Below, piece by piece: positions 5,574 to 53,572 of a stretch of 53,751 nt of DNA. The position numbers and the translations under genes are program-made. The stretch lies in IMG/VR virus record IMGVR_UViG_2698536392_000015, positions 1 through 53,751 of that record; one strand, 5' to 3'. Within the stretch, counting starts at the first letter, position 1; each line of letters starts with the position of its first letter. Source of the DNA: a virus. Its lineage: Duplodnaviria > Heunggongvirae > Uroviricota > Caudoviricetes. Below the pieces are notes generated by a model. That model ran no database searches. It was not told the origin of the DNA and saw only the letters and a program-made list of their open reading frames with translations.

Positions 5574-5995
5574 AAATCAAGCATGAACACATCCGCATGG
5601 CGATGAATGTCTGGGCGCATCCGGACGGCGAAAAAGTACCGGCTGCGAAAATTACCAAAGCGTATTTCGAGCTGGGAATGACGTTCCCGGAACTGTACGA
5701 CGACAGCCATCCGGAAGCCCTGGCCCGTAATACCCAGAAAATTTTCCGCTGGGTGGAGAAGGACACCCCTGATGCTGTTGAAAAAATTCAGGCTCTGTTA
5801 CCGGCGATCGAAAAGGCGATGCCGCCTTTGCTGGTGGCCCGTATGCGCAGCCACAGTTCTGAATATTACCGTGAGATCGTCGAACGGAGGGATCGGCTGG
5901 TGAAGGATGTCGATGATTTTGTTGCGTCAGCGGTTGTTTTGTATGACCAGATGAATCGCGGCGGCCCGGCAGGGAATGCTGTGGTGATGCACTAA
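5570..5995 (+). CDS. YdaT-like prophage protein (141 aa)
   Basis: N-terminal MKIKHEH and size match my recollection of Rac YdaT; position after the Cro-like gene. Confidence 0.45.
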   Translation: MKIKHEHIRMAMNVWAHPDGEKVPAAKITKAYFELGMTFPELYDDSHPEALARNTQKIFRWVEKDTPDAVEKIQALLPAIEKAMPPLLVARMRSHSSEYYREIVERRDRLVKDVDDFVASAVVLYDQMNRGGPAGNAVVMH

Positions 5996-6002
5996 AAGCA
6001 CG

Positions 6003-6980
6003 GTGTTCGGGGGTTTTATGAGCAGCAAGCTTCATGGTCTTGTCTGGGAAGGGTGCGCCTTCACCGGCATGATCTTATCCAGGGTGGCGGTTATGGCCCG
6101 TCTTGCAGACTACAGCAATGACGAGGGCGTGTCATGGCCTGCCATTGAAACTATCCGGCGTCAGATCGGTGCAAGAAGTGAATCCACAGTGAAATCGGCT
6201 ATTGCAGAACTGGCGAAAGAGGGCTGGCTGACGAAGGAAGAGCGTAAGGTCGGTGGGCGTAATGTAAGCAATATCTATCGGCTTAATGTGGAAAAACTCG
6301 AAGCAGCTGCGGCGGCGGCGCGTGAGTCATATAAACCAAAAAGAAAAATTAGCCCGGCAAAAAATGACCCGTTAACAGTTGACCCGTCAAATATTGACCC
6401 CTCAACGGTTGACCCGTCAAATTTTGATGGATCAACTGTTGATAAAAAACTGCCGATTAGGGGGGCGATGATTGACCCCGATCCGTCAGTATTAAAACCT
6501 GATCCGTCAGATAAAAGATCTTCTTGTCCGGACGCTTCGCAACCGGACCCGCAGACGGCTGAACAGGATTTTTTAACCCGACACCCTGACGCGGTTGTGT
6601 TCAGTGCGAAAAAACGCCAGTGGGGAAGTCAGGAAGATTTGGTGTGCGCACAGTGGATCTGGGGACGAATCGTGAGTCTTTACGAGCAGGCGGCCAGCTA
6701 TGATGGCGAGATCACTAGACCGAAAGAACCCAACTGGACAGCATGGGCCAATGACGTTCGCACAATGCGGATGCTGGATGGCAGAACTCACAGACAAATT
6801 TGTGAAATGTTTGGGCGTCTCCAGCGGGATTCGTTCTGGGTAAAAAACATCATGAGTCCGGCAAAACTCCGGGAAAAATGGGATGAACTGGTTATCCGCC
6901 TGGGGCGTTCGCCTGCGCAGCGTTGCGTGAATCACATTTCTGAACCGGACACTGAAATTCCGCCGGGCTTCAGGGGGTAA
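6003..6980 (+). CDS. Putative replication initiator / replisome organiser (O-like)
   Basis: N-terminal winged-helix-like region; coding sequence contains iteron-like direct DNA repeats; lies in the replication-gene position. Confidence 0.5.
   Translation: MFGGFMSSKLHGLVWEGCAFTGMILSRVAVMARLADYSNDEGVSWPAIETIRRQIGARSESTVKSAIAELAKEGWLTKEERKVGGRNVSNIYRLNVEKLEAAAAAARESYKPKRKISPAKNDPLTVDPSNIDPSTVDPSNFDGSTVDKKLPIRGAMIDPDPSVLKPDPSDKRSSCPDASQPDPQTAEQDFLTRHPDAVVFSAKKRQWGSQEDLVCAQWIWGRIVSLYEQAASYDGEITRPKEPNWTAWANDVRTMRMLDGRTHRQICEMFGRLQRDSFWVKNIMSPAKLREKWDELVIRLGRSPAQRCVNHISEPDTEIPPGFRG
6362..6515. repeat. Iteron-like direct repeats (candidate replication origin) inside the replication gene
   Basis: TTGACCCGTCAA-like 12-13 bp units repeated at about 6378, 6393, 6408 and 6423, with degenerate copies to about 6510, followed by an A-rich stretch. 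Confidence 0.45.
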
Positions 6981-7998: not shown

Positions 7999-8130
7999 AG
8001 GCTATAAACCGACTAACAACTAAATACTGAAGATTTAAATCAGAAACGATTTTTATTAAATCCTTAACCGGAGGGATTCCTGCACCCTCAAATCATCAGG
8101 AGGCCGCCCGAAAGGGCGGTGGAGATAATA

Positions 8131-8652
8131 ATGGGAATAACTAAAGAACGATTGTTGGAAATAGCAAACCTTAGTGATTGGGCATTAAGTGATGAGAGAA
8201 TTGTTTCTCCTCATGCTTATGAGTCAGTTACAAGTATAGAAATAACAACAATGGCTAGAATGCTGCTTGGTTATTTCAAAATAGAAAATAAAAAACAGAT
8301 GGATAGTAATGTTGATATATGTGAGATTTTAGACGATTGGGGGGCTTGGGTTGTGGCTGGTAATAGTTCTATTGATTGGCAGGAAATAGCTGATAAATAT
8401 AAAAATGTTGTTCCTCATGGTAAAAAATCACGTCGTCAGTGCAGCAATGATGAAGGGCGAATTATTGACATTAGTATCCTTAGGTTAGAAAGATATAAGC
8501 AACAAGAATATGAGTTAATTGTTGCTCATTTCGTGATTGGTTTATCTCTTCGTGCTATTGCAAAGCAACAAGGATGTTCAGATGGAACAATTCGTAAAAG
8601 ATTGCAAAAAGCCTTAGGTTTTTTGACTGGATATATAGCAATTACCAGTTAA
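8131..8652 (+). CDS. Late antiterminator Q-like protein
   Basis: WGAW motif, conserved RRQC stretch and C-terminal HTH-like ...SDGTIRKRLQKALG pattern resembling phage-82-type Q as recalled; ATG 8131 with GGTGGAG RBS. Confidence 0.6.
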   Translation: MGITKERLLEIANLSDWALSDERIVSPHAYESVTSIEITTMARMLLGYFKIENKKQMDSNVDICEILDDWGAWVVAGNSSIDWQEIADKYKNVVPHGKKSRRQCSNDEGRIIDISILRLERYKQQEYELIVAHFVIGLSLRAIAKQQGCSDGTIRKRLQKALGFLTGYIAITS

Positions 8653-11835: not shown

Positions 11836-12114
11836 ATGGCACGCAACGCAAAATATTACAATTCTGATAATTCGCCCGTTCTTGCCTGCACGCACGGGCG
11901 GTATTCTCACGCATTCAAGTCTGAATGGTTCCAGCACCCTCCATGCACTGCAGAACAGGCCGAATGGCTGATTCATTCTTACCGCAGGCGCGGGTTCGAG
12001 GTTAAGAAAGCTCTCAGTCTCGACTATCGGCACTGGATAATCTCTGTCAGGCTGCCTTATTCCGACCGCCCACCACGTGCGTCCCGCACTTTCCAGCAAC
12101 GGATCTGGAGGTAA
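11836..12114 (+). CDS. Hypothetical ORF, possibly a frameshifted 5' part of the next coding region
   Basis: Coding-like for most of its length; overlaps 12077..12433 in another frame. Confidence 0.3.
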   Translation: MARNAKYYNSDNSPVLACTHGRYSHAFKSEWFQHPPCTAEQAEWLIHSYRRRGFEVKKALSLDYRHWIISVRLPYSDRPPRASRTFQQRIWR

Positions 12115-12430
12115 CGTGCGGGTATTACTTAGACCTGTTCTGGTGCCTGAGCTTGGGCTGGTGGTCCTTAAGCCGGGCCGTGAATCCATACAGATATTTC
12201 ATAATCCTCGAGTGCTGGTGGAACCGGAACCAAAAAGCATGCGTAATCTGCCATCCGGAGTCGTTCCTGCCGTTCGCCAGCCGCTGGCGGAAGACAAAAC
12301 ATTGCTGCCGTTTTTTAGTAACGAACGGGTGATTCGTGCTGCTGGCGGCGTTGGCGCATTGTCCGACTGGCTATTACGTCATGTTACATCCTGCCAGTGG
12401 CCTAATGGCGATTACCATCATGTAACCAAG
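12077..12430 (+). pseudogene. Coding-like ORF running into the Mu-like left end, probably a host prophage gene disrupted by the insertion
   Basis: ORF stays open up to the junction and stops just inside the Mu-like end; C-terminal region is protein-like. Confidence 0.35.
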
Positions 12431-12600
12431 TGAATCATTTGATACCGACAAGGGTTTTAGTGAAAGGAGGTGAAATCACCTGTAAGATGCTGAAATAAAA
12501 CAGGTGATGTATAGTTCGGACGGAAAACTCTTTTTGATACCGACTGCTCAACAAATAGTCAAAAGATCAAAAAACGGCGACACATTTGATACTGCTAATT
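12431..12600. repeat. Left-end transposase-binding repeats (attL, L1-L3 like)
   Basis: TTTGATACCGAC at 12438 and 12533, TTTGATACTGC at 12585; spacing resembles Mu L1/L2/L3. Confidence 0.6.
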
Positions 12601-31273: not shown

Positions 31274-32407
31274 ATGAAGACAGAAAATCACCCAAAAGAC
31301 GCAAATCGCCCCTCTGGTTTAGCCGTGCTTTCAGCTTCGCTGACTGCATCCGGCGACGGATGGTGTCAGTTACTGCCAGCAGGCAGGGTAAAGGCCCGTG
31401 ACGGTCGCCCGGAAAAACCGGCTGAAGGCTGGCTGATTAACGAATCCGCCTGTAACCGGATGAAAGCCGGGCTTTCCGCCCTGAATCAGCCGTTACTGAT
31501 TGATTATGACCATCACTCCATGAATGCGCAGAAAAACGGATTCAAGGCCATTGCCGCAGGTTGGGTTAAGCCGGAAAACATCGAATGGCGTGAGGGGCAG
31601 GGGATTTTCATTAAACCTGAATGGACGCCGCAGGCCCAAAAACATATTGATGACCGTGAATATGCCTATCTGTCTGCGTATATGCATTATTTCGCTGACA
31701 CCGGGGAACCCTACCTGTTGCGCATGGCTTCCCTGACGAATGATCCAGGTATTACGGGTATGAACCCTGTCGCAGCACTCAGTGCTGACGATCTCTATGT
31801 AGTTTCCCCTTCTCAGGAGCAACACCCCATGAATGAGCAATTACGCCAGTTGCTGACGGCGCTCGGTCTGACCGTGGCTGACGGTGACGAATTTACGCCG
31901 GAGCTGGGCACGGCGGCGCTGTCTGCCCTCACCGGGATCAAAACCCGTGCGGATGCACACGACAACCTGAAAACACAGGTCGCCAGTCTGTCGGCAGAGC
32001 TGGAAACCGCAAAAGGCACACCGGCTGGCGGCAGTATTGATCTGACGAAATACGTGCCCGTTGAAACGTATAACGCCCTGCGTACCGAATACGTTGCACT
32101 GTCGGCGCAGCACGGCAGCACCACGCTGGAGCAGGTGCTGGACAAGGCTGAATCCGAAGGGCGCATCTTCAAAAGCGAACGCGGCTATCTGGAACAACTG
32201 GGTGGGCAGATTGGTGTTGCTGCACTTTCTGCACAGCTTGACGCCCGACAGCCGGTTGCGGCCCTGACCGGCCTTCAAACCGACACCGTGACCGTGCCGG
32301 ATAAAAAGACTGCCACCGCTGTGCTGTCGGCTGAAGATATCGCGGCCGCCAAACTGCTGGGTAAAACCGAAGCCGAGTTCCTGAAAATGAAAGAGGAAAT
32401 GCAATAA
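31274..32407 (+). CDS. Head protease/scaffold (Mu I-like)
   Basis: 377 aa directly upstream of the major head gene. Confidence 0.75.
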   Translation: MKTENHPKDANRPSGLAVLSASLTASGDGWCQLLPAGRVKARDGRPEKPAEGWLINESACNRMKAGLSALNQPLLIDYDHHSMNAQKNGFKAIAAGWVKPENIEWREGQGIFIKPEWTPQAQKHIDDREYAYLSAYMHYFADTGEPYLLRMASLTNDPGITGMNPVAALSADDLYVVSPSQEQHPMNEQLRQLLTALGLTVADGDEFTPELGTAALSALTGIKTRADAHDNLKTQVASLSAELETAKGTPAGGSIDLTKYVPVETYNALRTEYVALSAQHGSTTLEQVLDKAESEGRIFKSERGYLEQLGGQIGVAALSAQLDARQPVAALTGLQTDTVTVPDKKTATAVLSAEDIAAAKLLGKTEAEFLKMKEEMQ

Positions 32408-33354
32408 TGCCTACCCCGATTACACCGGCGATGATCACCGCCCTGATGACGGGCTACCGTTCTGATTTTCAGGCCGGGATGTCCATGGCCCCGTCGCAGT
32501 ACAAAAAAATTGCGATGACCGTGCCCTCCACATCGAAATCCAACACCTACGGCTGGCTGGGGCATGCGCCTCATTTTCGTGAGTGGATTGGTTCTCGTGT
32601 GATCCAGAAAATGAAAGCGCACGGTTATTCCATTGTAAACAAGACCTGGGAAGATACCGTCCCTGTTAATCGTGATGATTTTGAGGACGATAATCTCGGT
32701 ATTTACTCGCCTTTATTTCAGGAGCTTGGTCGTGCCGCTGCTGTTCAGCCGGATGAGCTTGTATTTGCTGCTCTGCGTGATGGTCTGAAAAGTGCGTGTT
32801 ACGACGGTCAGAACTTCTTTGATACCGAACACCCCGTCTACCCAAATGTGGATGGTACCGGTGATGTGGCGCTGGTCAGCAACATGTTTGTGGCAAAAAC
32901 CGGCTCTGTCGGTGCACAGGCGGATTACAGCGGACCGGCCTGGTATCTGCTCGACTGCTCCCGTGCAATAAAACCCATCATCTATCAGAGCCGCCGCAAG
33001 GTTGAACTGGTTGCACAGACCAAAATTGATGAAGGTCGCGCATTCACTGATAACGAGTTTGTGTTCGGTGCATCCGTTCGTCACAACGTGGGCTACGGCT
33101 TCTGGCAGATGGCCTACATGATGCAGTCACCGCTGACGCTGGATGCGCTGTGGCATGGCTGGTCCGCCATGCGTGAGTTTACCGCTGACGGTGGCCGCAA
33201 ACTCGGCATCAAACCTACCCATATTGTTGTCCCCACCTCGCTGGAAAAACAGGCGGTGCAGCTGCTGGAGCGTGAACTGTTCGCAGACGGTAACGCCACC
33301 GTCTCTAACGAGATGAAGGGCAAGCTGGAGCTGGTTGTCGCGGATTATCTGTAA
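32407..33354 (+). CDS. Major head subunit (Mu T-like)
   Basis: 315 aa; position after protease/scaffold. Confidence 0.8.
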   Translation: MPTPITPAMITALMTGYRSDFQAGMSMAPSQYKKIAMTVPSTSKSNTYGWLGHAPHFREWIGSRVIQKMKAHGYSIVNKTWEDTVPVNRDDFEDDNLGIYSPLFQELGRAAAVQPDELVFAALRDGLKSACYDGQNFFDTEHPVYPNVDGTGDVALVSNMFVAKTGSVGAQADYSGPAWYLLDCSRAIKPIIYQSRRKVELVAQTKIDEGRAFTDNEFVFGASVRHNVGYGFWQMAYMMQSPLTLDALWHGWSAMREFTADGGRKLGIKPTHIVVPTSLEKQAVQLLERELFADGNATVSNEMKGKLELVVADYL

Positions 33355-44088: not shown

Positions 44089-44639
44089 CCCTCACTCCGC
44101 ATCAGCGCGCCCTGTTGCAGTTGCTGCCTGACGGACTGGCCTGGGACAAGCGGCCGTCATCCGTACTGGCTGCGTTATGCCTTGGCCTCAGCCATTCCAC
44201 CGAACGTGTTGCATGGACGGGAAAACAACTGCTGGCAGAACGTTTCCCTGACAGTTCCCGTCTGCTTCTGGAAGACTGGGAGCGTTATCTCGGCCTTCCC
44301 GAGTGTGATATGGCCGGAGCCACCATCACAGAACGACAGCGTTATGCCGGGAATAAATACCGGATGAAGCCTTCGCTGAACCGTGAATTTTATATCAGGT
44401 TTGCGGCAGAGTTTGGTTATGAAATAGATATTCAGCCATCACCGGATTCACAGTGGGTCAGTATTGTCACGATAAACAGTGAAACCGGCTACCGGAATAT
44501 GAATGTGCTGGATGATATTCTCACGCCGCTGCGTATTTATGAGGGCGGTGCGCTGGAATGTATTCTGAATCGTTATAAGCCTGCATGGCAGACGTTTATT
44601 TACGTGTATGCAAACAGTCACGAAGAGGAGAATATTTAA
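44079..44639 (+). CDS. Tail protein (Mu gp48-like)
   Basis: 186 aa between baseplate J and fibre. Confidence 0.65.
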
Positions 44640-45550
44640 TGTTCCATGTTGATAATAATTCCGGCGTGGCGAATATGCCTGAACTGGCTCCGGCGCAGAG
44701 TAATACCACCACCTGGTTTACCGAGGGGGACGGACAAAAAGGTATCAGCTGGATTGGTCAGGACTGGCTGAATATTCTCCAGGCCGAACTGCTGAATATC
44801 CTGGATGAAGCCAGTATTCAGCCGGATAAGGCGCAGTTAAACCAGCTTACGCTGTCTATTAAAGCCATTATCGCTGCGAATGCTTTTTCCCGGAAAAATA
44901 ACCTGAAAGAAATTGCTGATGCCGGTGCGGAGGCCCAGCGTCTGGCCCGTGGTTATCTTGGTCTGGGGACGCTTGCCACAAAAAACAGTCTTGGTCCCGG
45001 TGACGTTAATGCCCTGGCGAAGGATCAGAATCTCGCCGACCTGGAGAATAAGGAAACCGCCCGTAATAATCTTGATGTTTACAGCAAGAGCGAAGGTGAT
45101 AACCGTTACCTGCGCAGGGAACAGAATGGTAAAGATATTGCGAACAAAAGTGCCTTTATCGATAACCTCGGTTTACGGGAAACGGTAAACAGGGCTGCAA
45201 ATGCCCTGCCATCGAATGGTACAGCCGTAGCGGCAAACAAGCTGTCTGCGGCACGTAAAATTAACGGTGTTGCGTTCGATGGCACAAAGGACATCACTAT
45301 TACATCCGGGATGACCCAGACTACAGCAGACGGCAGATATGTTCGTAATGTGCAACTTGGTGCTCAGAGCCGCCACTCTCCTGCGGGTAATGAAGTCACC
45401 TGGGATTATAAAACGCCAGCAGGTTGTATGCTTTCCGGTATTCATGTACAGGATACCGGCTCCCGGTCTGCGGATAATATCGGTGGGGTCTATTATCGCC
45501 CGGTTCAGATTTATATTAATAATGCCTGGAGAACGGTGAGTTCAGTGTAA
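44639..45550 (+). CDS. Tail fibre protein S (constant part plus expressed variable part)
   Basis: ATG overlaps upstream stop (TAATG); C-terminal part lies inside the invertible segment and is paralogous to the minus-strand cassette. Confidence 0.75.
45157..45190. repeat. Left recombination site of the invertible segment (gix-like)
   Basis: AACCTCGGTTTACGGGAAAC, matching the gix core as recalled; inverted copy at 46524-46556. Confidence 0.7.
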
Positions 45551-45584
45551 ACCACAGAAAAGGGTGCTGAATGCACCCTCTGAA

Positions 45585-46109
45585 TTATTCCGGTTTTTCC
45601 GGCCAGGAAATCGCCTGGTAATGCCCCTCACTGGCAATATCATTAAGGTGCATTTCTTTAAGCTGTCGGATATACGCCATCCAGCGCGTCAGCTGTAATT
45701 TATTTTCATCGCTAATCATGTCCAGTTTTAATTCCGTTTTCCAGTCATCCACAGTTTCGTTGGCTTCCTGGAGCAGCGATGAGCGGCGCTTTTCAGCAAC
45801 CGTATTCCAGTTTACCGGCACCTTTGATATCAGGCCATCAGAAAACTGCCAGTTACCGTCAATATTCACACCTTCTGGCAGTTCGTCCACTTCAACAACA
45901 GTAAAACCTGCCGGATATAAAGCAGAGACATCTTCAGCAACAGAGCAGATAATACCCGTTACAGGCGAAATACAGAGTTTGTATTTCTTTGTGAAAAGCG
46001 GGATAGATTCATAAAAATCCCTTCCGTCCTCACTCTGGAAATACTGAACATCCTCACCATAGGGTTTGTGTTCCGGGTAATATCGTTTTACGTTAATAAG
46101 CTCCATCAT
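45585..46109 (-). CDS. Tail fibre assembly protein (Tfa/U-like)
   Basis: Start MMELINVKRYY at 46109 with AAGGTGA RBS; conserved Tfa-like C-terminus (...WMAYIRQLKEMHLNDIASEGHYQAISWPEKPE). Confidence 0.75.
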   Translation of the reverse strand: MMELINVKRYYPEHKPYGEDVQYFQSEDGRDFYESIPLFTKKYKLCISPVTGIICSVAEDVSALYPAGFTVVEVDELPEGVNIDGNWQFSDGLISKVPVNWNTVAEKRRSSLLQEANETVDDWKTELKLDMISDENKLQLTRWMAYIRQLKEMHLNDIASEGHYQAISWPEKPE

Positions 46110-46185
46110 TTCACCTTGTTTTTGTTGAAAAGACAAAATCATCATATATTTATTCAGATAATCTGTTTTTTGAACTACTGCACTT

Positions 46186-46546
46186 TTATGCGCTGGAAGC
46201 TGTTTTCCACGAACCATCTATCAGAAACTGAACAGGTCGATAATATGCGGTTACCGTTGCATTACCATCACCAGCGACATCAAGCCCTGTAAGTACGCAT
46301 CCGTCAGGAACTTCAAAAATATTATATTGCATTCCAATCGTTGACCTTGAACCTCTTCGAATGCTTTGAACATAACGTAAGTCAGCCACAGACTGCGTCA
46401 TCCCCGATGTAATATTTATATCCTGCGTTCCGTCGAAAGGAACGCCATTAATATTTCTTGGTGTGGCGAGTCTGTTTGCTGCCACGGCGGTTCCATCCGA
46501 TGGCAGGGCATCAGCAGCCTTATTTACCGTATCCCGTAAACCGAGG
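46186..46546 (-). CDS. Promoterless alternative tail-fibre C-terminal cassette (S'v)
   Basis: Paralogous to the S C-terminus (...NGVPFDGTQDINITSGMTQ vs ...[19 protein letters not shown]); open frame runs up to the inverted repeat. Confidence 0.65.
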
Positions 46547-46556
46547 TTTCAGGGAT
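46524..46556. repeat. Right recombination site of the invertible segment (gix-like, inverted)
   Basis: Reverse complement reads AACCTCGGTTTACGGGATAC. Confidence 0.7.
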
Positions 46557-46610
46557 GCCGTATATCTGCTTTAAAAAGCATTTCCACCTCTTTTTAAGGA
46601 AGGTAAATAC

Positions 46611-47171
46611 ATGCTGATTGGCTATATACGCGTATCAACAAATGACCAGAACACCGGTTTACAAAGAAATGCGCTGGAATGTGCAGGATGTGAGCAGATT
46701 TTTGAAGACAAAATGAGCGGAAAAACAACGCAGCGGCCGGGACTGAAGCGGGCACTGAAGAAACTAAAACCCGGTGACACACTGATGGTCTGGAAACTGG
46801 ACAGGCTGGGGCGCAGTATGCGCCACCTTGTTGCGCTGACAGATGAATTACAGCAACAGGGGATAAATTTTCGTAGTCTTACTGACAACATTGATACGTC
46901 AACCCCCATGGGGCGCTTCTTTTTTCACATAATGGGTGCGCTGGCAGAAATGGAGCGTGAATTAATTGTCGAACGGACACGGGCTGGTCTTGCAGCTGCC
47001 CGTGAAAGGGGACGAACCGGCGGCAGACCCCGCCGTCTCACGCAGGAACAATACGAGCAGGTTGGGCGTTTACTGGCCGGGGGTGTCAGTCGAAGACAGG
47101 TGGCACTTATTTTTGATATCGGCCTTTCAACCCTTTATCGTTATTATCCTGCGAGCGTTTCGGAAAAATAA
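46611..47171 (+). CDS. gin: Serine DNA invertase (Gin/Hin/Pin/Cin family)
   Basis: N-terminal MLIGYIRVSTNDQNT...RNALECAGCEQIFEDK and C-terminal HTH match Mu Gin as recalled; adjacent to the invertible segment. Confidence 0.9.
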   Translation: MLIGYIRVSTNDQNTGLQRNALECAGCEQIFEDKMSGKTTQRPGLKRALKKLKPGDTLMVWKLDRLGRSMRHLVALTDELQQQGINFRSLTDNIDTSTPMGRFFFHIMGALAEMERELIVERTRAGLAAARERGRTGGRPRRLTQEQYEQVGRLLAGGVSRRQVALIFDIGLSTLYRYYPASVSEK

Positions 47172-47270
47172 GACGCTCCCTTTGTTGGGCCTTTACTGAA
47201 TTAACGCAAAATGGCGTTTATCGGTCTGTGGATATGATAATTCTGTTTATTCAGGAACAGGCTGATTATT

Positions 47271-49313
47271 ATGACGTCCAAATGGGTTCAACTATCATCA
47301 ATGCCCGGAAACTTTACCGTTAAAGTTTCCGGTGGTACAGCGGCATTTCTTGAGGCTCCCTTTCCTCCGGCCGAAACAAAAGGAGGAATGACATTTGCTG
47401 ACTGTCTCATCAGTTTTAATACACGGGATTGCCTGTGGGTAAGGCCAGTATCCGGTGATCCGAGTGTGGAAATTACCGGAGCGGGTATCGGTGCGGTCAT
47501 TCCGTTAAGTGCTGATGTTGCCGGTACTGCTGAACCGTCAGACTGGGATAATGCTGAAACACATACCCGTCCGTCAGGAAATGAAACTGCTTCCAGCTCC
47601 CCTTCCTGGTATTACGTGGTGGTTCTTGCTGGTCAGTCAAACGGTATGGCTTACGGTGAAGGTCTGCCACTGCCGGAGACATATGATCGCCCCGAACCGC
47701 GTATTATGCAGTTAGCCCGTCGCAGTACTGTCACGCCGGGAGGTAAAGTCTGTCAGTATAACGACATCATTCTGGCCGACCACTGTCTGCATGATGTGCA
47801 GGATATGAGTGGAAAAAATCACCCGAAAGCGGATGTGGCTAAAGGGCAATATGGCACCGTGGGTCAGGGGCTTCACATTGCCAAAAAACTGCTGCCGTTT
47901 ATTCCGGCAGATGCGGGGATTCTGCTGGTTCCCTGCTGCCGTGGTGGTTCTGCATTCACGGCGGGTGCTGACGGCACGTACAGTGACAGCATGGGTGCTT
48001 CAGAGGACTCAGCCCGATGGGGTGTGGATAAGCCGCTGTATAAGGACTTAATCAGCCGGACAAAAGCGGCACTGGCGAAGAACCCGAAAAACCGCCTGCT
48101 TGCTGTGGTGTGGATGCAGGGCGAGTTTGATATTGATGCGAAGCCGACGGAGCATTCTGCGCTGTTTCTGGCGATGGTGGAAAAATTCCGCGCAGACCTG
48201 GCTGAACAGGCGGAACAGTGTACCGGTGGCAGTGCTGCTGGCGTTCCGTGGATTTGTGGCGATACCACGTATTTCTGGAAACAGAAAAATGAACCGGCAT
48301 ACCAGGCAATCTATGGCGGCTACAAAAACAAAACAGATAAAAACATTCATTTCGTCCCATTAATGACAGATGAAAATGGCGCGAATGTACCTACCAACAA
48401 TCCGACAGAAGACCCGGATATTGAATCCATTGGTTATTACGGCTCAACGTGGCGTAACAATGCTGCCACCTGGACATCTGCGGACCGGGCCAGTCATTTC
48501 AGTGCCTGGGCGCGCCGTGGGATTATTTCCGACCGTCTGGCCACGGCTGTTCTGACTCACGCAGGGCGAACCACAGTAAAAGCCGATGTTCCATCTTCTG
48601 AAACTGATGCGCCAACGCCGTCACCTTCAGAAGCTGAAACAGTAACCACAACAACACTGCTGTCTTACCGTGCCAGTGAGTCTGAAGGGAAGCTGACCGA
48701 ACAGGGCTGGAGTGCAGGTGGAGGTAAAGCGGAAATTGTTGCCGATGAAGGTGCAACTGGTGGAACCGCGATGAAGCTGAGCAAGGAGACGGGTAAAGGA
48801 TCATGGCATCTGGAGCATGATGCCGGTACTGGCGCTGAACTGCTGAAAAATGGCGGCTTAATCAGTTGCCGCTTTAAGGCATCCGGTGAACTGGTGGCAA
48901 ATCAGTATGTCATTGCACTTTACTGGCCGGTTTCCTCTCTGCCGCAGGGTGTCACCCTGACAGGGGATGCAGGGAATAATCTGCTGGCAGCGTTCTACAT
49001 CCAGACAGACGCAAAAGACCTGAATGTGATGTACCACAATGCAAAAGTGGCGACAAATAACCTTAAGCTGGGAACCTTTGGCGCATTTGATAATGAGTGG
49101 CATACGCTGGCCTTCCGCTTTGCCGGGAATAACAGCCTTCAGGTGACGCCGGTTATTGATGGTCAGGACAGTACACCGTTCACGCTGACGCAGTCACCGG
49201 TCAGTGCATTTGCGGCGGATAAACTGCATGTGACAGACATTACCAAAAATGCGACTTACCCGGTGCTGATTGACAGCATTGTGGTGGAAGTGAAAAAAGC
49301 GGTAACAGAATAA
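47271..49313 (+). CDS. SGNH/sialate-O-acetylesterase-like hydrolase with C-terminal lectin-like domain (680 aa)
   Basis: VVLAGQSNGMAYGEG resembles the GQSN motif of carbohydrate acetylesterases; Thr/Ser/Pro linker then a beta-rich C-terminal domain. Confidence 0.65.
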   Translation: MTSKWVQLSSMPGNFTVKVSGGTAAFLEAPFPPAETKGGMTFADCLISFNTRDCLWVRPVSGDPSVEITGAGIGAVIPLSADVAGTAEPSDWDNAETHTRPSGNETASSSPSWYYVVVLAGQSNGMAYGEGLPLPETYDRPEPRIMQLARRSTVTPGGKVCQYNDIILADHCLHDVQDMSGKNHPKADVAKGQYGTVGQGLHIAKKLLPFIPADAGILLVPCCRGGSAFTAGADGTYSDSMGASEDSARWGVDKPLYKDLISRTKAALAKNPKNRLLAVVWMQGEFDIDAKPTEHSALFLAMVEKFRADLAEQAEQCTGGSAAGVPWICGDTTYFWKQKNEPAYQAIYGGYKNKTDKNIHFVPLMTDENGANVPTNNPTEDPDIESIGYYGSTWRNNAATWTSADRASHFSAWARRGIISDRLATAVLTHAGRTTVKADVPSSETDAPTPSPSEAETVTTTTLLSYRASESEGKLTEQGWSAGGGKAEIVADEGATGGTAMKLSKETGKGSWHLEHDAGTGAELLKNGGLISCRFKASGELVANQYVIALYWPVSSLPQGVTLTGDAGNNLLAAFYIQTDAKDLNVMYHNAKVATNNLKLGTFGAFDNEWHTLAFRFAGNNSLQVTPVIDGQDSTPFTLTQSPVSAFAADKLHVTDITKNATYPVLIDSIVVEVKKAVTE

Positions 49314-49459
49314 AAAAATCCCGCCGGTCATGATACGGCTGGCGGGAGCTACCTAACCCATAAAGGAAAATAAAAATACTACCGAAGGAGTAGTTATCAG
49401 TCGCTTCGATGTTTTTACCCGATAACGAATTATGTAGTCAATATCAAAGGTAAGGTTAT

Positions 49460-49642
49460 ATGACATTCGTTCATACAATGCTGCTTTATTTCTGCGCAGT
49501 GGTCAGTGCGTTATATCTGGTGAGCGGCGGTTATAAGGTCATCAGAAATTATATTCGCCGTAAAATTGATGATGCGGCAGCTGAAAAACTCAGTAAAACA
49601 GCACAGGCACCGTCATCCCCAAACGACCCGACCCCGCTCTGA
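49460..49642 (+). CDS. Small membrane protein (60 aa)
   Basis: ATG with AAGGTAAGG RBS; one hydrophobic helix. Confidence 0.4.
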   Translation: MTFVHTMLLYFCAVVSALYLVSGGYKVIRNYIRRKIDDAAAEKLSKTAQAPSSPNDPTPL

Positions 49643-49677
49643 TAACGGGGCAATATACCTGCAAAAGGAGAATATTC

Positions 49678-49923
49678 ATGCCAGAGATTAAAGGCACGGT
49701 TACTGAAGAGCTTGTCAAACAGGCACTTTATTCTGAAGAAGTGAACCGCGTGCTGAAGGCGCAGGTTCGCAAGGATTTTGAGGCACAAATCGACGCATAT
49801 GTTGATGAAGTGCTGGCCCGAATGGTTGGCCGTTCTCCGGCTGAAAACAGCACGGAAAATGAGCCTCAACCCGTAGAGCAACCAGAGCCGGTTCAGCCCG
49901 GAACTGACGGTACTATGATGTAA
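49678..49923 (+). CDS. Hypothetical small protein (81 aa)
   Basis: ATG with AAGGAG RBS. Confidence 0.45.
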   Translation: MPEIKGTVTEELVKQALYSEEVNRVLKAQVRKDFEAQIDAYVDEVLARMVGRSPAENSTENEPQPVEQPEPVQPGTDGTMM

Positions 49924-49961
49924 CAATACCGACCGGCAGGTTTCCCTGCCGGGTGAATTTG

Positions 49962-50132
49962 TTAATGCACGTTTTGTGTATTTTCCCTCCGGGGAGAACA
50001 GGCAGGACATATCAGCATCCTGAAACAGGAAGCATTTTTTGGTTTGTATGTCTTGCCATTTTGAGATCGAGAACGGCGATAGATGAGCTGTAAGGGAGTC
50101 TTACAGGCAGGGCAAACAGGCTCTTTATCCAT
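49962..50132 (-). CDS. Small zinc-ribbon protein (56 aa), divergent from the com/methyltransferase operon
   Basis: MDKEPVCPAC...CPAC; ATG preceded by AAGGAG. Confidence 0.45.
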   Translation of the reverse strand: MDKEPVCPACKTPLQLIYRRSRSQNGKTYKPKNASCFRMLICPACSPRRENTQNVH

Positions 50133-50541
50133 GATAAAGATCTCCTTTTTATGCATCTCTGCTTTACAGGAGACCGGGGAATATCATAGGATACGCCACG
50201 AGCTCGAAGTAAAGCATTGATGCAAAATTGTCTAAATCGGCCCAGAATAGTTCGCGCTATCTGGGTCGCCCTTTATGTATGTAGTATCCTGTTGATTTGA
50301 AACATACTACATATACGCGCGATCCTACCTTCACTGTATAAAAAGTCAATAAAATGATCATTTTATGATCGTTTTCACCACCTAACTCTTCGTTTTCTTT
50401 AAGTAAATAATCACCTCCCTGAATCATTGTTGATGACTTTTCAATCTATTTGTTGTATCAATTAAACAAATCGAATCGATCGTTTTTGTCGATCGATTGC
50501 ATGAGAAAGGCATCAACAACAAAGCAGGAGGTTATGCGGCC
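50133..50541. promoter_or_regulatory. AT-rich divergent control region with GATC cluster and palindrome upstream of com
   Basis: GATC at 50320, 50356, 50367, 50478, 50491; perfect 9-bp inverted repeat AATCGATCG-N7-CGATCGATT (50474-50498). Confidence 0.5.
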
Positions 50542-50727
50542 ATGTATCGAAACATACGGTGCCGACACTGCAATAAGCTACTGGCACGGGCCAGTTTCAG
50601 TTATCTGGAAGTAAAATGTCCGCGCTGCAAAACCCTCAATCAAATCACATCTCAGAGCGCCACAGAGCACCCCACATACACAAGGAAATCCTGCCGTGGG
50701 GAACAAGAAACATTACTTTCAGTCTGA
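50542..50727 (+). CDS. com: Com-like zinc-finger translational regulator
   Basis: MYRNIRCRHCNKLLARASFSYLEVKCPRCK aligns with Mu Com (MKSIRCKNCNKLLFKADSFDHIEIRCPRCK) as recalled; AGGAGG RBS; overlaps the downstream gene start. Confidence 0.8.
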   Translation: MYRNIRCRHCNKLLARASFSYLEVKCPRCKTLNQITSQSATEHPTYTRKSCRGEQETLLSV

Positions 50728-51748
50728 TAAGTCACTAACCTATGGTTCAGTATGCAGTGGTATTGAAGCTGCGACAGTAGCCTGGAGCAATCTTGGCTGG
50801 AAAGCCAGTTGGTTCAGTGAAATAGAGGACTTCCCGTCAACACTTCTTTCATATCGCTGGCCCCATATACCAAATCTTGGTGATATGGCTTTGCTTGCGC
50901 CTCGTATCAGGGATGGGCTTATTGAAGCACCAGATATTCTTGTAGGTGGAACTCCGTGTCAGGCATTCAGTATGTCAGGCAAACGAAAAGGCCTTTCAGA
51001 TCCACGGGGGCAGTTAACACTGTCTTTTGTTGAACTGGCGAATCAGATAGATACCGTTCGGGCATCGCTCAATAAATCCCCCTCAATAATCGTATGGGAA
51101 AACGTCACAGGAGTTTTAAGTAGCCATGACAATGCATTCGGTCATTTTCTTGGTGCGCTGGCCGGAGCAGGTTGCGCATTACAGCCAGCAAGGAAAAGAT
51201 GGGCAAACGCTGGTGTTGTGTCTGGACCATCGCGTATCGTCGCCTGGCGAGTACTTGATGCCCAATATTTCGGAGTCGCCCAGGCTCGCAGAAGAGTGTT
51301 TGTTGTGGCAAGTGCTGGAAAAAGGCTCGATCCCGGAAAGGTATTATTTGAGTTCCCGCCTGTGTCGCAGGGCGATAAAAACTATTACGGAAAGAAGAAA
51401 AAATCCGAATCCCTTCTTGATCAAGGCATTGAAGGAAAATTGCACCGATATTGCCTTGAAGCATTGCCAAAACGAACAGGCACAGTAATAGCTGGCTATA
51501 ACGGAACAACTAACCAGGACATGACTATGTCTGGTGGGCTCATAGTTGAAAGAGCGCCATATTCAAGGGTTCGTAGGTTGACGCCAACCGAATGCGAGAG
51601 GCTACAAGGTTTTCCCGATGGATATACAGATATTCCATGGAAAAATTCATCTCCAGCTCATCGTTATAAGGCCATTGGAAATTCAATGCCTGTACCGGTC
51701 ATGAAATGGATTGGTCGAAGAATACAGGAAGCGTTAAACGAAGTTTAA
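50696..51748 (+). CDS. DNA (cytosine-5)-methyltransferase
   Basis: C5-MTase motifs: GSVCSGIEA (I-like), GGTPCQAFSMSGKRKG (IV), IIVWENVTGVLS (VI), AQARRRVFVVA (VIII), RRLTPTECERLQGFPDGY (C-terminal); GTG start overlapping com. Confidence 0.85.
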   Translation: MGNKKHYFQSDKSLTYGSVCSGIEAATVAWSNLGWKASWFSEIEDFPSTLLSYRWPHIPNLGDMALLAPRIRDGLIEAPDILVGGTPCQAFSMSGKRKGLSDPRGQLTLSFVELANQIDTVRASLNKSPSIIVWENVTGVLSSHDNAFGHFLGALAGAGCALQPARKRWANAGVVSGPSRIVAWRVLDAQYFGVAQARRRVFVVASAGKRLDPGKVLFEFPPVSQGDKNYYGKKKKSESLLDQGIEGKLHRYCLEALPKRTGTVIAGYNGTTNQDMTMSGGLIVERAPYSRVRRLTPTECERLQGFPDGYTDIPWKNSSPAHRYKAIGNSMPVPVMKWIGRRIQEALNEV

Positions 51749-51824
51749 ACCTAAGCAAAAGACATTATGAAGTTGGTTTTTGTGCCGTTAAAAGATGTCT
51801 TTAAGGAGTGCAAAGGAAAGCGCC

Positions 51825-51918
51825 AATTTAGTATCAAAAAAGATGCTTATCGGCGCTTTTCATCGGTATCAAATGAAATGCAAATCGGTATCAAAAAAAT
51901 CGCCGCGCTATAATCACA
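51825..51918. repeat. Right-end transposase-binding repeats (attR, R1-R3 like)
   Basis: GTATCAAA at 51831, CGGTATCAAA at 51864 and 51886, inverted relative to the left-end motifs. Confidence 0.6.
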
Positions 51919-51953
51919 CTGAAACAGTCATTCACCGTTATGGTACCGGCGCA

Positions 51954-52661
51954 ATGGTGTTGTGCTGGCACTGCGACAACCAGCTGCGCGACCAGACATC
52001 TGATTCACTGGCGCAACTTGCTCAGCAGAATCTGGTTGCCTGGATGATTGACGTCATCCGTCACGCAATAAGCGGTACGCAGGAGAGGGAGTTATCGCTG
52101 GCCGAATTATCCTGGTGGGCGGTCTGCAATCAGGTGGTGGATGCACTACCTGAGGCAGTAGCGCGTCGTTCGCTGGGATTACCAGCGGAAAAAATCCGCT
52201 CAGTATACCGTGAGAGCGACATCGTACCGGGAGAGCAGACCGCCACCAGCATACTGAATCAGCGCACAAAAAATCTTGCGCCGTTGCCTCACGTCCACCA
52301 GCAACAACCCTCACCACAGGAAAAGGCGGTGGTCAGCATTGCCGTTGATCCGGAGTCTCCGGAATCTTTCATGAAGCGGCCTAAACGTCGCCGTTGGGTA
52401 AATGAGAAATACACGCGCTGGGTAAAGACACAGCCGTGCGCGTGTTGTGGAAAGCCAGCCGACGATCCCCATCACCTGATCGGCCATGGTCAGGGCGGCA
52501 TGGGGACAAAAGCCCACGATATTTTCACGCTACCGCTGTGTCGGGAGCATCACAACGAGCTTCATGCGGATCCGCTGGCGTTCGAAGAAAAGTATGGTTC
52601 CCAGGTTGATTTGATTTTTCGTTTTCTTGATCACGCCTTTGCAACAGGCGTACTTGGGTAA
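51954..52661 (+). CDS. DUF968-type (YdfU-like) prophage protein, probably the 3' portion of a gene disrupted by the Mu-like insertion
   Basis: C-terminal CACCGKPADDPHHLIGHGQGGMGTKAHD...PLCREHHNELH motif; track ORF start 51795 lies inside the Mu-like end repeats. Confidence 0.45.
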   Translation: MVLCWHCDNQLRDQTSDSLAQLAQQNLVAWMIDVIRHAISGTQERELSLAELSWWAVCNQVVDALPEAVARRSLGLPAEKIRSVYRESDIVPGEQTATSILNQRTKNLAPLPHVHQQQPSPQEKAVVSIAVDPESPESFMKRPKRRRWVNEKYTRWVKTQPCACCGKPADDPHHLIGHGQGGMGTKAHDIFTLPLCREHHNELHADPLAFEEKYGSQVDLIFRFLDHAFATGVLG

Positions 52662-52673
52662 AGGAGGTGACTG

Positions 52674-53033
52674 ATGCGTACAGAGTTTGTTTTGCCCTGG
52701 CCGCCGACGGTGAACACTTACTGGCGACGTCGTGGCAGCACATATTTTGTATCAAAAACCGGTGAGCGTTATCGCCGGGATGTGGCGCTAATTGTTCGCC
52801 AGCAGCGCCTGCAATTACATCTGTCCGGAAGGCTGGCGATAAAGATTATTGCCGAGCCACCGGATAAGCGTCGCCGTGACCTGGACAATATTCTGAAAGC
52901 GTTGCTGGATGCGCTGACGCATGCGGGAGTACTCATTGATGATGAGCAGTTTGATGAAATCAATATTGTACGTAGTCAGCTTGTTCCTGGTGGTCGGTTG
53001 GGTGTGAAGATTTACAAAATTGAGAGTGAGTGA
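52674..53033 (+). CDS. rusA: Holliday junction resolvase RusA
   Basis: VLPWPPTVNTYWRRRG...KRRRDLDNILKALLDALTHAGVLIDDEQ matches RusA family as recalled. Confidence 0.85.
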   Translation: MRTEFVLPWPPTVNTYWRRRGSTYFVSKTGERYRRDVALIVRQQRLQLHLSGRLAIKIIAEPPDKRRRDLDNILKALLDALTHAGVLIDDEQFDEINIVRSQLVPGGRLGVKIYKIESE

Positions 53034-53572
53034 GCGTAAATATGATATATCCGGAAATGACAGGCAAAAGCGGCGAACATTTACGCCTGAACACGCTGGA
53101 AGCAGTCTGGATCCAGGGGAAATTACGGATGTGGGGGCGGTGGTCGTATATCGGTGGGGGTAAATCCGGAAATATGTTTAACCGGTTACTGGTTTCGAAA
53201 AAGCTGACGAAAACAGCAGTTAATGAGGTTTTACGCAGAATGAAGAAATCCGGGCTGGAAAAACCGGAACTTGAGGCATTTTTTCGGGATATGACCAGAG
53301 GGAAGCAGAAGAGCTGGTTGTCACATTGTACAGACACAGAGGCGTTGATTATTGATCGCGTTATCAGTGAGGTGCTTGGGGAATATCCCGGGCTAATCAA
53401 TATTCTCCGGCAAAGGTACGAAGGACGGGGAATGAGTAAGAGAAAAATGGCAGAATGTTTAAATCGTACTCACCCGGAATGGTGTTTCAGCACATGTGAG
53501 AAACGTATTGCAGGTTGGTTAGCCGTGGCTGAACACATGCTTTATGTACCTATGCACGATTCATTTCGATAA
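53030..53572 (+). CDS. Putative late antiterminator (Q-like)
   Basis: Position after rusA and before a terminator; WGRW motif; family not recognised with certainty. Confidence 0.45.
   Translation: MSVNMIYPEMTGKSGEHLRLNTLEAVWIQGKLRMWGRWSYIGGGKSGNMFNRLLVSKKLTKTAVNEVLRRMKKSGLEKPELEAFFRDMTRGKQKSWLSHCTDTEALIIDRVISEVLGEYPGLINILRQRYEGRGMSKRKMAECLNRTHPEWCFSTCEKRIAGWLAVAEHMLYVPMHDSFR

Follow-up and report, generated by a model that had tools for sequence, protein, structure and literature searches.

A probable NanS-p-family sialate O-acetylesterase gene with a distinct N-terminal domain, close to the right end of a Mu-like prophage of the Sp18 type

Introduction

What is a large esterase- and lectin-like protein doing directly behind the DNA invertase gene of a Mu-like phage? 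The question is raised by positions 47271-49313 of IMG/VR virus record IMGVR_UViG_2698536392_000015, which we analysed over its full stretch of 53,751 nucleotides (nt), hereafter the window. A first-pass annotation, made from the sequence alone, had described a 680-amino-acid (aa) open reading frame (ORF) and proposed that its product deacetylates surface polysaccharide, either as a virion-associated depolymerase or as a converting enzyme that alters the host receptor. Our analysis points instead, with a probability of about 0.88, to a sialate O-acetylesterase of the NanS-p family, whose gene is accessory cargo close to the right-hand end of an Sp18-type, Mu-like prophage. Family, folds and function are all known already; the swapped N-terminal domain and the Mu-like carrier phage set this gene apart.

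Results

Architecture and family of the protein

The gene is a single unbroken ORF with an ATG start, and its parts are as follows.

47271-49313, plus strand: nanS-p-type sialate 9-O-acetylesterase gene; 680 aa; orthologue of ECs_4993 of Sakai prophage Sp18; matches PDB 3pt5 and 6yp6 and phrog_143
47271-47504, plus strand: N-terminal domain, aa 1-78; predicted small all-beta domain, found only in Mu-like prophages, in the position of DUF1737 in lambdoid NanS-p
47505-47606, plus strand: linker 1, aa 79-112; rich in Ser/Thr/Pro/Gly/Ala/Glu, predicted disordered, with an SSSP motif at its end
47607-48560, plus strand: SASA/SGNH-type esterase domain, aa ~113-430; 58% identity to NanS (3pt5), with the catalytic motifs
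48561-48656, plus strand: linker 2, aa 431-462; rich in Thr/Pro/Ser/Glu, between the two PDB-matched regions
48657-49310, plus strand: C-terminal lectin-like jelly-roll domain (DUF6645), aa 463-680; 82% identity to 6yp6

Pfam searches of the 680-aa protein matched SASA (PF03629) at aa 116-312 (E 8e-12) and DUF6645 (PF20350) at aa 525-643 (E 2e-72), and PHROGs assigned it to phrog_143 (1016 bits), a family labelled 'unknown function'. In the PDB, aa 104-428 matched E. coli O157:H7 NanS/YjhS (3pt5), an esterase for 9-O-acetyl-N-acetylneuraminic acid, with an E-value of 1.5e-118 and 58% identity over 320 aa, and aa 460-675 matched the crystallised C-terminal domain of NanS-p (6yp6) with an E-value of 5e-115 and 82% identity over 216 aa. 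Since these identities are to solved structures, we take the esterase and lectin folds as settled, and the refuting condition named in the first-pass annotation, absence of an esterase fold, does not hold. Its description of a ~110-aa N-terminal region, an SGNH/sialate-O-acetylesterase domain and a lectin-like C-terminus is borne out by the same matches. Nucleotide matches to the gene were found in 303 phage records, almost all of them Stx (Shiga toxin)-converting phages, in which it is annotated as yjhS, 9-O-acetyl-Neu5Ac deacetylase or SASA-family esterase; RefSeq labels such genes DUF6645 or sialate O-acetylesterase.

The catalytic motifs of NanS and NanS-p have been defined, with 'RSSH or RASH' as variants of block IV (PMC10462455). 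All are kept here: GQSN at aa 121-124 (Ser123), as the first-pass annotation had noticed, CCRGGS at 222-227, QGE at 283-285 and RASH (His409). In the homologue vb_24B_21, Y510, Y515, Y540 and F611 have been proposed as the sugar-binding site (PMC10462455), and these aromatics correspond, with a single offset of +36, to Y546, Y551, Y576 and F647 of the window protein. Judged by its sequence, the 680-aa protein thus belongs to the NanS-p family, and its active site and lectin site both appear intact. It has the NanS-like SASA catalytic domain, the catalytic blocks, the four-aromatic lectin domain and the prophage location of the family; it lacks the N-terminal DUF1737 domain (PF08410), and for this reason we regard the gene as an architectural variant rather than a typical NanS-p. 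Neither a signal peptide nor a transmembrane segment was found in the 680-aa protein.

The carrier element

The esterase gene is part of a Mu-like prophage, 2.6 kb in from its right end. The backbone of this element (~12.4-51.9 kb) encodes MuA, MuB, a Mu portal protein, MuF, a major head protein (gpT) and a tail sheath protein.

12421-51912, plus strand: Mu-like (Sp18-type) transposable prophage; matches to MuA, MuB, Portal_Mu, MuF, gpT and sheath; ends mapped

At the right end, homology to copies located at unrelated chromosomal sites stops at 51912 and homology to a DUF968 (ydfU) gene runs from 51913. The left junction falls at 12420/12421, with both flanks aligned to an intact DUF968 gene, and the ORF at 12077-12433 is the N-terminal third of a phrog_96/DUF968 protein whose remainder resumes at 51913. 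The element starts TGTAACCAAGTGAATCATTTGATACCGA, and ATCA is present in both flanks. A left end at ~12576, extrapolated from the coordinates of depositors, was rejected since the alignment to the intact DUF968 gene gives 12421. On the left the element is flanked by the early region of a lambdoid prophage, with CII-like and O-like genes, and on the right by RusA and a DUF1133/Q-type antiterminator. In the phage collection, 100% matches were limited to two Stx-phage records, with the stretch annotated as 'region of the inserted Bacteriophage Mu-like phage'; the depositors of LC727895 annotate it as an inserted Mu-like phage. As read from these junctions, a Mu-like prophage has transposed into the DUF968 gene of a lambdoid Stx prophage, and the esterase gene is genuine cargo of the element.

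The insertion (flanks 12077-12420 and 51913-52661) sits between the O-like replication genes and rusA/Q, so that ~39.5 kb separates the early region from the late antiterminator, and it might affect induction of the Stx phage. Besides the DUF1133/Q-type gene (53030-53572), the left lambdoid flank holds a second Q-like antiterminator ORF (phrog_79) at 8119-8652.

The N-terminal domain

DNA homology to lambdoid nanS-p genes is confined to 47609-49302 (aa 113-677), with none upstream of 47609, and the N-domain is only 18% identical to the lambdoid NanS-p N-terminus in alignment. No Pfam or NCBIfam family matched aa 1-112 (no DUF1737 at E <= 0.01), and an NCBIfam scan of the whole esterase, the N-domain and the two fragments of a reverse ORF farther downstream gave no matches. 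The segment nevertheless behaves as coding DNA. Among six copies it has 17 variable sites, 10 of them synonymous and 11 at codon position 3, and since variation is mostly of these kinds, the segment is truly coding. Homology to a Mu-like prophage that has no gin gene starts only ~30 nt upstream of the esterase ATG. An AlphaFold2 (AF2) model of the N-terminal 123 aa, built on a shallow alignment of four sequences, predicted beta strands over aa ~5-78 with predicted local distance difference test (pLDDT) scores of 61-73; pLDDT fell below 50 from residue 72 on, in the region of linker 1, and overall confidence was low (mean 52).

The domain has a narrow distribution. An exhaustive HMMER search of aa 1-112 against 1.84 billion representatives returned five matches, of which four were truncated copies of the esterase gene; the fifth, a 1445-aa Gly/Ala/Val-rich repeat protein, was judged a compositional match. 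When HMMER results were combined with a profile search of a 5.8-billion-protein collection, the domain occurred only in truncated esterase copies from E. coli, Shigella sonnei (62% identity to the window's) and Salmonella enterica (29%), a taxonomic spread that may be underestimated, as libraries of cluster representatives may mask full-length members behind lambdoid ones. By tblastn, the E. coli-type and Salmonella-type domains found only the two records with the Mu-like insert among 50,697 phage records. Scanning GTDB species-representative genomes for an N-domain pattern gave 34 matches and no confirmed case, and IMG/VR held only near-identical copies of the E. coli type and none of the Salmonella type.

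In Salmonella the homologue occupies the corresponding genomic position of a Mu-like prophage, where the 29%-identical N-domain is followed by a Pro/Thr linker and then the start of SASA. Gene order there runs from Mu Gp45/46/47/48 baseplate genes through a fibre segment, a resolvase gene and two small ORFs to the N-domain-SASA gene. Since a Mu-like prophage of Salmonella has so diverged a fusion, the architecture of N-domain plus SASA is both old and maintained.

A role for the domain is suggested by phage phi24B, in which the DUF1737 of gp84 is reported to bind the capsid and to assemble into hexamers on its hexons; proteolytic processing of the esterase is reported as well (bioRxiv 10.64898/2026.04.10.717836). 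By analogy, the N-domain is most plausibly a phage-lineage-specific module for virion attachment or assembly. The narrower proposal, that it may be a Mu-type virion anchor and the counterpart of DUF1737 on phi24B-like capsids, we offer tentatively and regard as rather unlikely. DUF1737 folds as an alpha helix and three beta strands (bioRxiv 10.64898/2026.04.10.717836), whereas the window N-domain is predicted to be all-beta.

In every E. coli-type copy checked, codons 12-21 of the esterase gene (47305-47332) contain a hairpin with a loop of 4 nt and a perfectly paired stem of 12 bp. We rejected a regulatory role for this hairpin; neither the Shigella nor the Salmonella homologue has it, the local fold is nothing out of the ordinary (z -0.8), and it is probably incidental.

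Mosaicism among copies

Within the set of Mu-borne copies, identity ranges from 97 to 100% in the N-domain, from 67 to 100% in the SASA domain and from 39 to 100% in the C-domain. The C-domain of the window protein is 94.5% identical to that of a lambdoid copy and 85% identical to that of another Mu-borne copy. This mosaicism between domains, directly visible in the alignments, indicates that the enzyme body is exchanged between co-resident prophages, while the N-domain stays with the phage lineage. One Mu-borne copy (L005, 3091-5148 of NZ_CP074845.1) is 97% identical in the N-domain, 67% in SASA and 39% in the C-terminal domain, having another type of lectin domain; it is evidence of domain shuffling within the family.

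In 5426 complete E. coli genomes, the esterase N-terminus with its leader was found at 246 places (205 genomes) and the major head gene of the lineage at 268 places (228 genomes); from these counts, about nine in ten copies of the element carry the esterase. The gpT gene of the window (32407-33354) has only ~88% DNA identity to the common Sp18 type, and of the 229 records that match it, 219 fall at 80-90%. For the esterase N-terminus, by contrast, 169 of 207 such records reach at least 99%, which makes the element a mosaic when set against Sp18.

Discussion

Proposed function and alternative explanations

NanS-p enzymes de-O-acetylate 5-N-acetyl-9-O-acetylneuraminic acid (Neu5,9Ac2) and the O-acetylated mucin glycans of animal hosts, allowing the lysogen to grow on them (PMC8065619); for lambdoid alleles, Neu5,9Ac2 esterase activity and growth on Neu5,9Ac2 have been shown by experiment (PMC8065619). 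Close homologues of this kind are our guide to the substrate, physiological role and release route of the window protein, as they are to the role of its N-domain. In the SASA/SGNH-type domain, Ser123 of GQSN would act as nucleophile and His409 of RASH as general base, taking 9-O-acetyl and related O-acetyl groups off Neu5,9Ac2, either free or on host mucin O-glycans, while the C-terminal jelly-roll lectin domain would keep the enzyme on the glycan. The product, N-acetylneuraminic acid (Neu5Ac), could then be freed by sialidases and catabolised via the Nan pathway, a nutritional gain for lysogens in mucus. Since the protein is without an export signal, it would presumably reach its substrate when phage lyse part of the population, or while bound to the virion.

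Several observations weigh against this account. The AF2 model of the N-domain is weak (mean pLDDT 52), and the role given to the domain is one of analogy. Foldseek searches of that model against BFVD and the PDB gave no match at E <= 0.001, the superpositions obtained, on cupin-like and small phage proteins, being very weak; and, unlike DUF1737, the domain had no stand-alone homologue in the HMMER and profile searches. The gene lies outside the head and tail operons. A scan for promoters and terminators found fewer promoter-like sites than in shuffled sequence, and expression signals were not identified. The openly accessible literature searched held no paper that pairs NanS-p with Mu-like phages or mentions ECs4993.

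The first-pass annotation had looked to the bacterium's own surface, where the esterase would deacetylate lipopolysaccharide (LPS) O-antigen or capsule, blocking superinfection or giving the virion access to its receptor. SGNH/SASA esterases can act on various O-acetylated sugars, the gene adjoins the host-range block of fibre and invertase genes, and LPS deacetylation by NanS-p has been raised as a possibility (PMC8065619). However, its aid to phage adsorption is there a hypothesis only, with no experimental evidence, and all NanS-p alleles tested act on Neu5,9Ac2 and mucin glycans (PMC8065619). Moreover, NanS, with which the catalytic domain shares 58% identity, is a dedicated sialate esterase, the lectin site is shared with phi24B NanS-p, and no export signal would bring the protein to the envelope of the lysogen. 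We consider action on the bacterium's own surface improbable. Of the idea of a converting enzyme, what survives is that of a phage 'conversion' gene; the target changes from the host receptor to the Neu5,9Ac2 and mucin on which close homologues act.

The position of the gene beside tail-fibre genes also invites the view that it encodes a tail-associated depolymerase or tailspike-like enzyme acting on polysaccharide at adsorption, and the poorly scoring fold matches in BFVD do include proteins annotated as tail fibres. Against this, the protein matched no tail-fibre, tailspike, beta-helix or other tail or depolymerase family in Pfam or PHROGs (phrog_143 carries the label 'unknown function', not 'tail'), and the structures of NanS and NanS-p account for both large domains. 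The invertase separates the gene from the fibre genes, and the prophage without gin has it behind a different fibre set; lambdoid phages encode the enzyme body away from their tail genes, between stx and the genes for lysis; and the phi24B homologue decorates the capsid and not the tail (bioRxiv 10.64898/2026.04.10.717836). We therefore find a tail enzyme very hard to sustain. A virion-associated enzyme, as the first-pass annotation supposed, has its precedent in phi24B gp84, which is bound to the capsid via DUF1737, but DUF1737 is absent here and nothing in the protein resembles a tailspike or depolymerase. There is thus no specific support for reading it as a receptor-modifying enzyme or a depolymerase.

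One might also take the ORF for a product of recombination in decay, in which a piece of lambdoid nanS-p was joined by chance to unrelated Mu sequence, so that its N-terminus means nothing and little or no function is left. Such a view could be read into the abrupt start of lambdoid homology inside the ORF at 47609, the breakage of some copies by IS66 (as in copy L007) and the frameshifts in the neighbouring reverse ORF, but is scarcely credible when most copies keep the full-length ORF intact with all catalytic residues, N-terminal substitutions are mostly synonymous, homology among Mu-like prophages, the one without gin included, begins ~30 nt upstream of the ATG, and a Salmonella Mu-like prophage has its own fusion of a 29%-identical N-domain to SASA.

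Gene neighbourhood

The genes around the esterase gene form a recurrent block.

46611-47171, plus strand: Gin-type DNA invertase gene, directly upstream of the esterase gene; Resolvase and HTH_7 matches, phrog_125
49460-49642, plus strand: gene for a DUF1378 small membrane protein (Pfam E 1e-38) with an N-terminal transmembrane helix; syntenic partner of nanS-p
49678-49923, plus strand: gene for a DUF826 protein (Pfam E 3e-15); second syntenic partner
50497-51748, plus strand: com homologue overlapping a C5 DNA cytosine methyltransferase gene (Zn_ribbon_Com and DNA_methylase matches); last genes before the Mu right end

The stretch upstream of the esterase gene holds a tail-fibre gene, an oppositely oriented gene for tail-fibre assembly, inverted repeats and the invertase gene. 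The repeats (45164-45344 and 46368-46548; 181 nt, 76% complementary) bracket the assembly gene and an alternative minus-strand fibre C-terminus, and the region at 44585-46548 resembles the invertible G segment that governs host range.

Downstream, the order esterase-DUF1378-DUF826 is also found in a lambdoid phage (L003, with DUF1378 and DUF826 at 5839-6304). Compared with the lambdoid versions, the window's DUF1378 protein has 53% identity and its DUF826 protein 45%, and at the DNA level no similarity is detectable. Because the partners have diverged this far, the three-gene cassette is an old association in both phage types, and the conservation of its order in phages of unrelated backbone hints that the genes are functionally linked. 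Beyond it, on the minus strand at 49962-50427, a homologue of Sakai ECs_4996 (a hypothetical, Cys-rich protein of 154 aa) is frameshifted into pieces of 64 and 56 aa; it is frameshifted in several other copies too.

The first-pass annotation correctly placed the esterase gene beyond the fibre genes and the invertase and, by comparison with Mu, in the com-mom region. A com homologue (50497-50727) does follow, but the modification gene is a C5 cytosine methyltransferase (50696-51748), where Mu, Sp18 and another copy (L002) have mom. This suggests that Com-type translational control has passed to another DNA-modification enzyme. Only 6 of the 5426 complete E. coli genomes match at least 80% of 46600-51950, and the lower-coverage copies sampled carry mom. 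Overall, the recurrent order is gin, esterase (679-685 aa), DUF1378, DUF826, reverse ORF, com, mom or C5 methyltransferase and Mu end; it was found in Sakai Sp18 (inserted in sorM), in a glycosyltransferase gene, in other lambdoid prophages and in the Mu-like prophage without gin.

Comparison with known systems

The closest relative is ECs_4993 of Sp18 in E. coli O157:H7 Sakai, an orthologue with 94% identity at the same position, whose neighbours, ECs_4992 (invertase) and ECs_4994-4998, match those of the window. The Sakai record labels it only as a 'hypothetical protein'. The C-terminal domains of the two proteins are ~15% different, and in Sp18 the place of the C5 methyltransferase is taken by mom. 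Chromosomal NanS (YjhS, 3pt5; 337 residues) is homologous to the catalytic domain over its whole length, residues 11-331 of the chain being covered by aa 104-428, and shares the GQSN and R(S/A)SH motifs, but has neither the N-terminal nor the lectin domain.

Lambdoid NanS-p proteins, such as z1466/L0105 of 933W and vb_24B_21 (gp84) of phi24B, consist of DUF1737, SASA and a C-terminal lectin domain (PMC10462455). The window protein has the esterase and lectin domains in common with them, with 79-85% nucleotide identity over aa 113-677, as well as the catalytic blocks, the sugar-site aromatics, the downstream DUF1378 and DUF826 genes and, as a carrier, a temperate phage of E. coli strains that produce Shiga toxin (STEC). 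It differs in having, in place of DUF1737, a ~78-aa beta domain and a longer linker, so that the capsid anchor of phi24B gp84 is absent. The carrier is a transposable Mu-like myovirus and not a lambdoid phage, and the gene follows gin and precedes com-mom, whereas lambdoid nanS-p is Q-controlled and has stx on one side and the holin gene on the other.

The number of nanS-p alleles per strain is discussed for lambdoid prophages. To these the Mu-like prophage contributes one more copy, and a transposable one, in ~4% of complete E. coli genomes, mostly of STEC. If the N-domain were indeed a Mu-type virion anchor, NanS-p proteins would be modular, virion-displayed, mucus-interacting enzymes whose anchor is swapped to suit the architecture of the phage, and the enzyme/lectin body would travel between phage types together with DUF1378 and DUF826 as a functional cassette. 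The swap of a domain reported to bind the capsid, on an enzyme body that is freely exchanged, offers a way to test whether NanS-p is a fitness factor of the lysogen, a component of the virion, or both.

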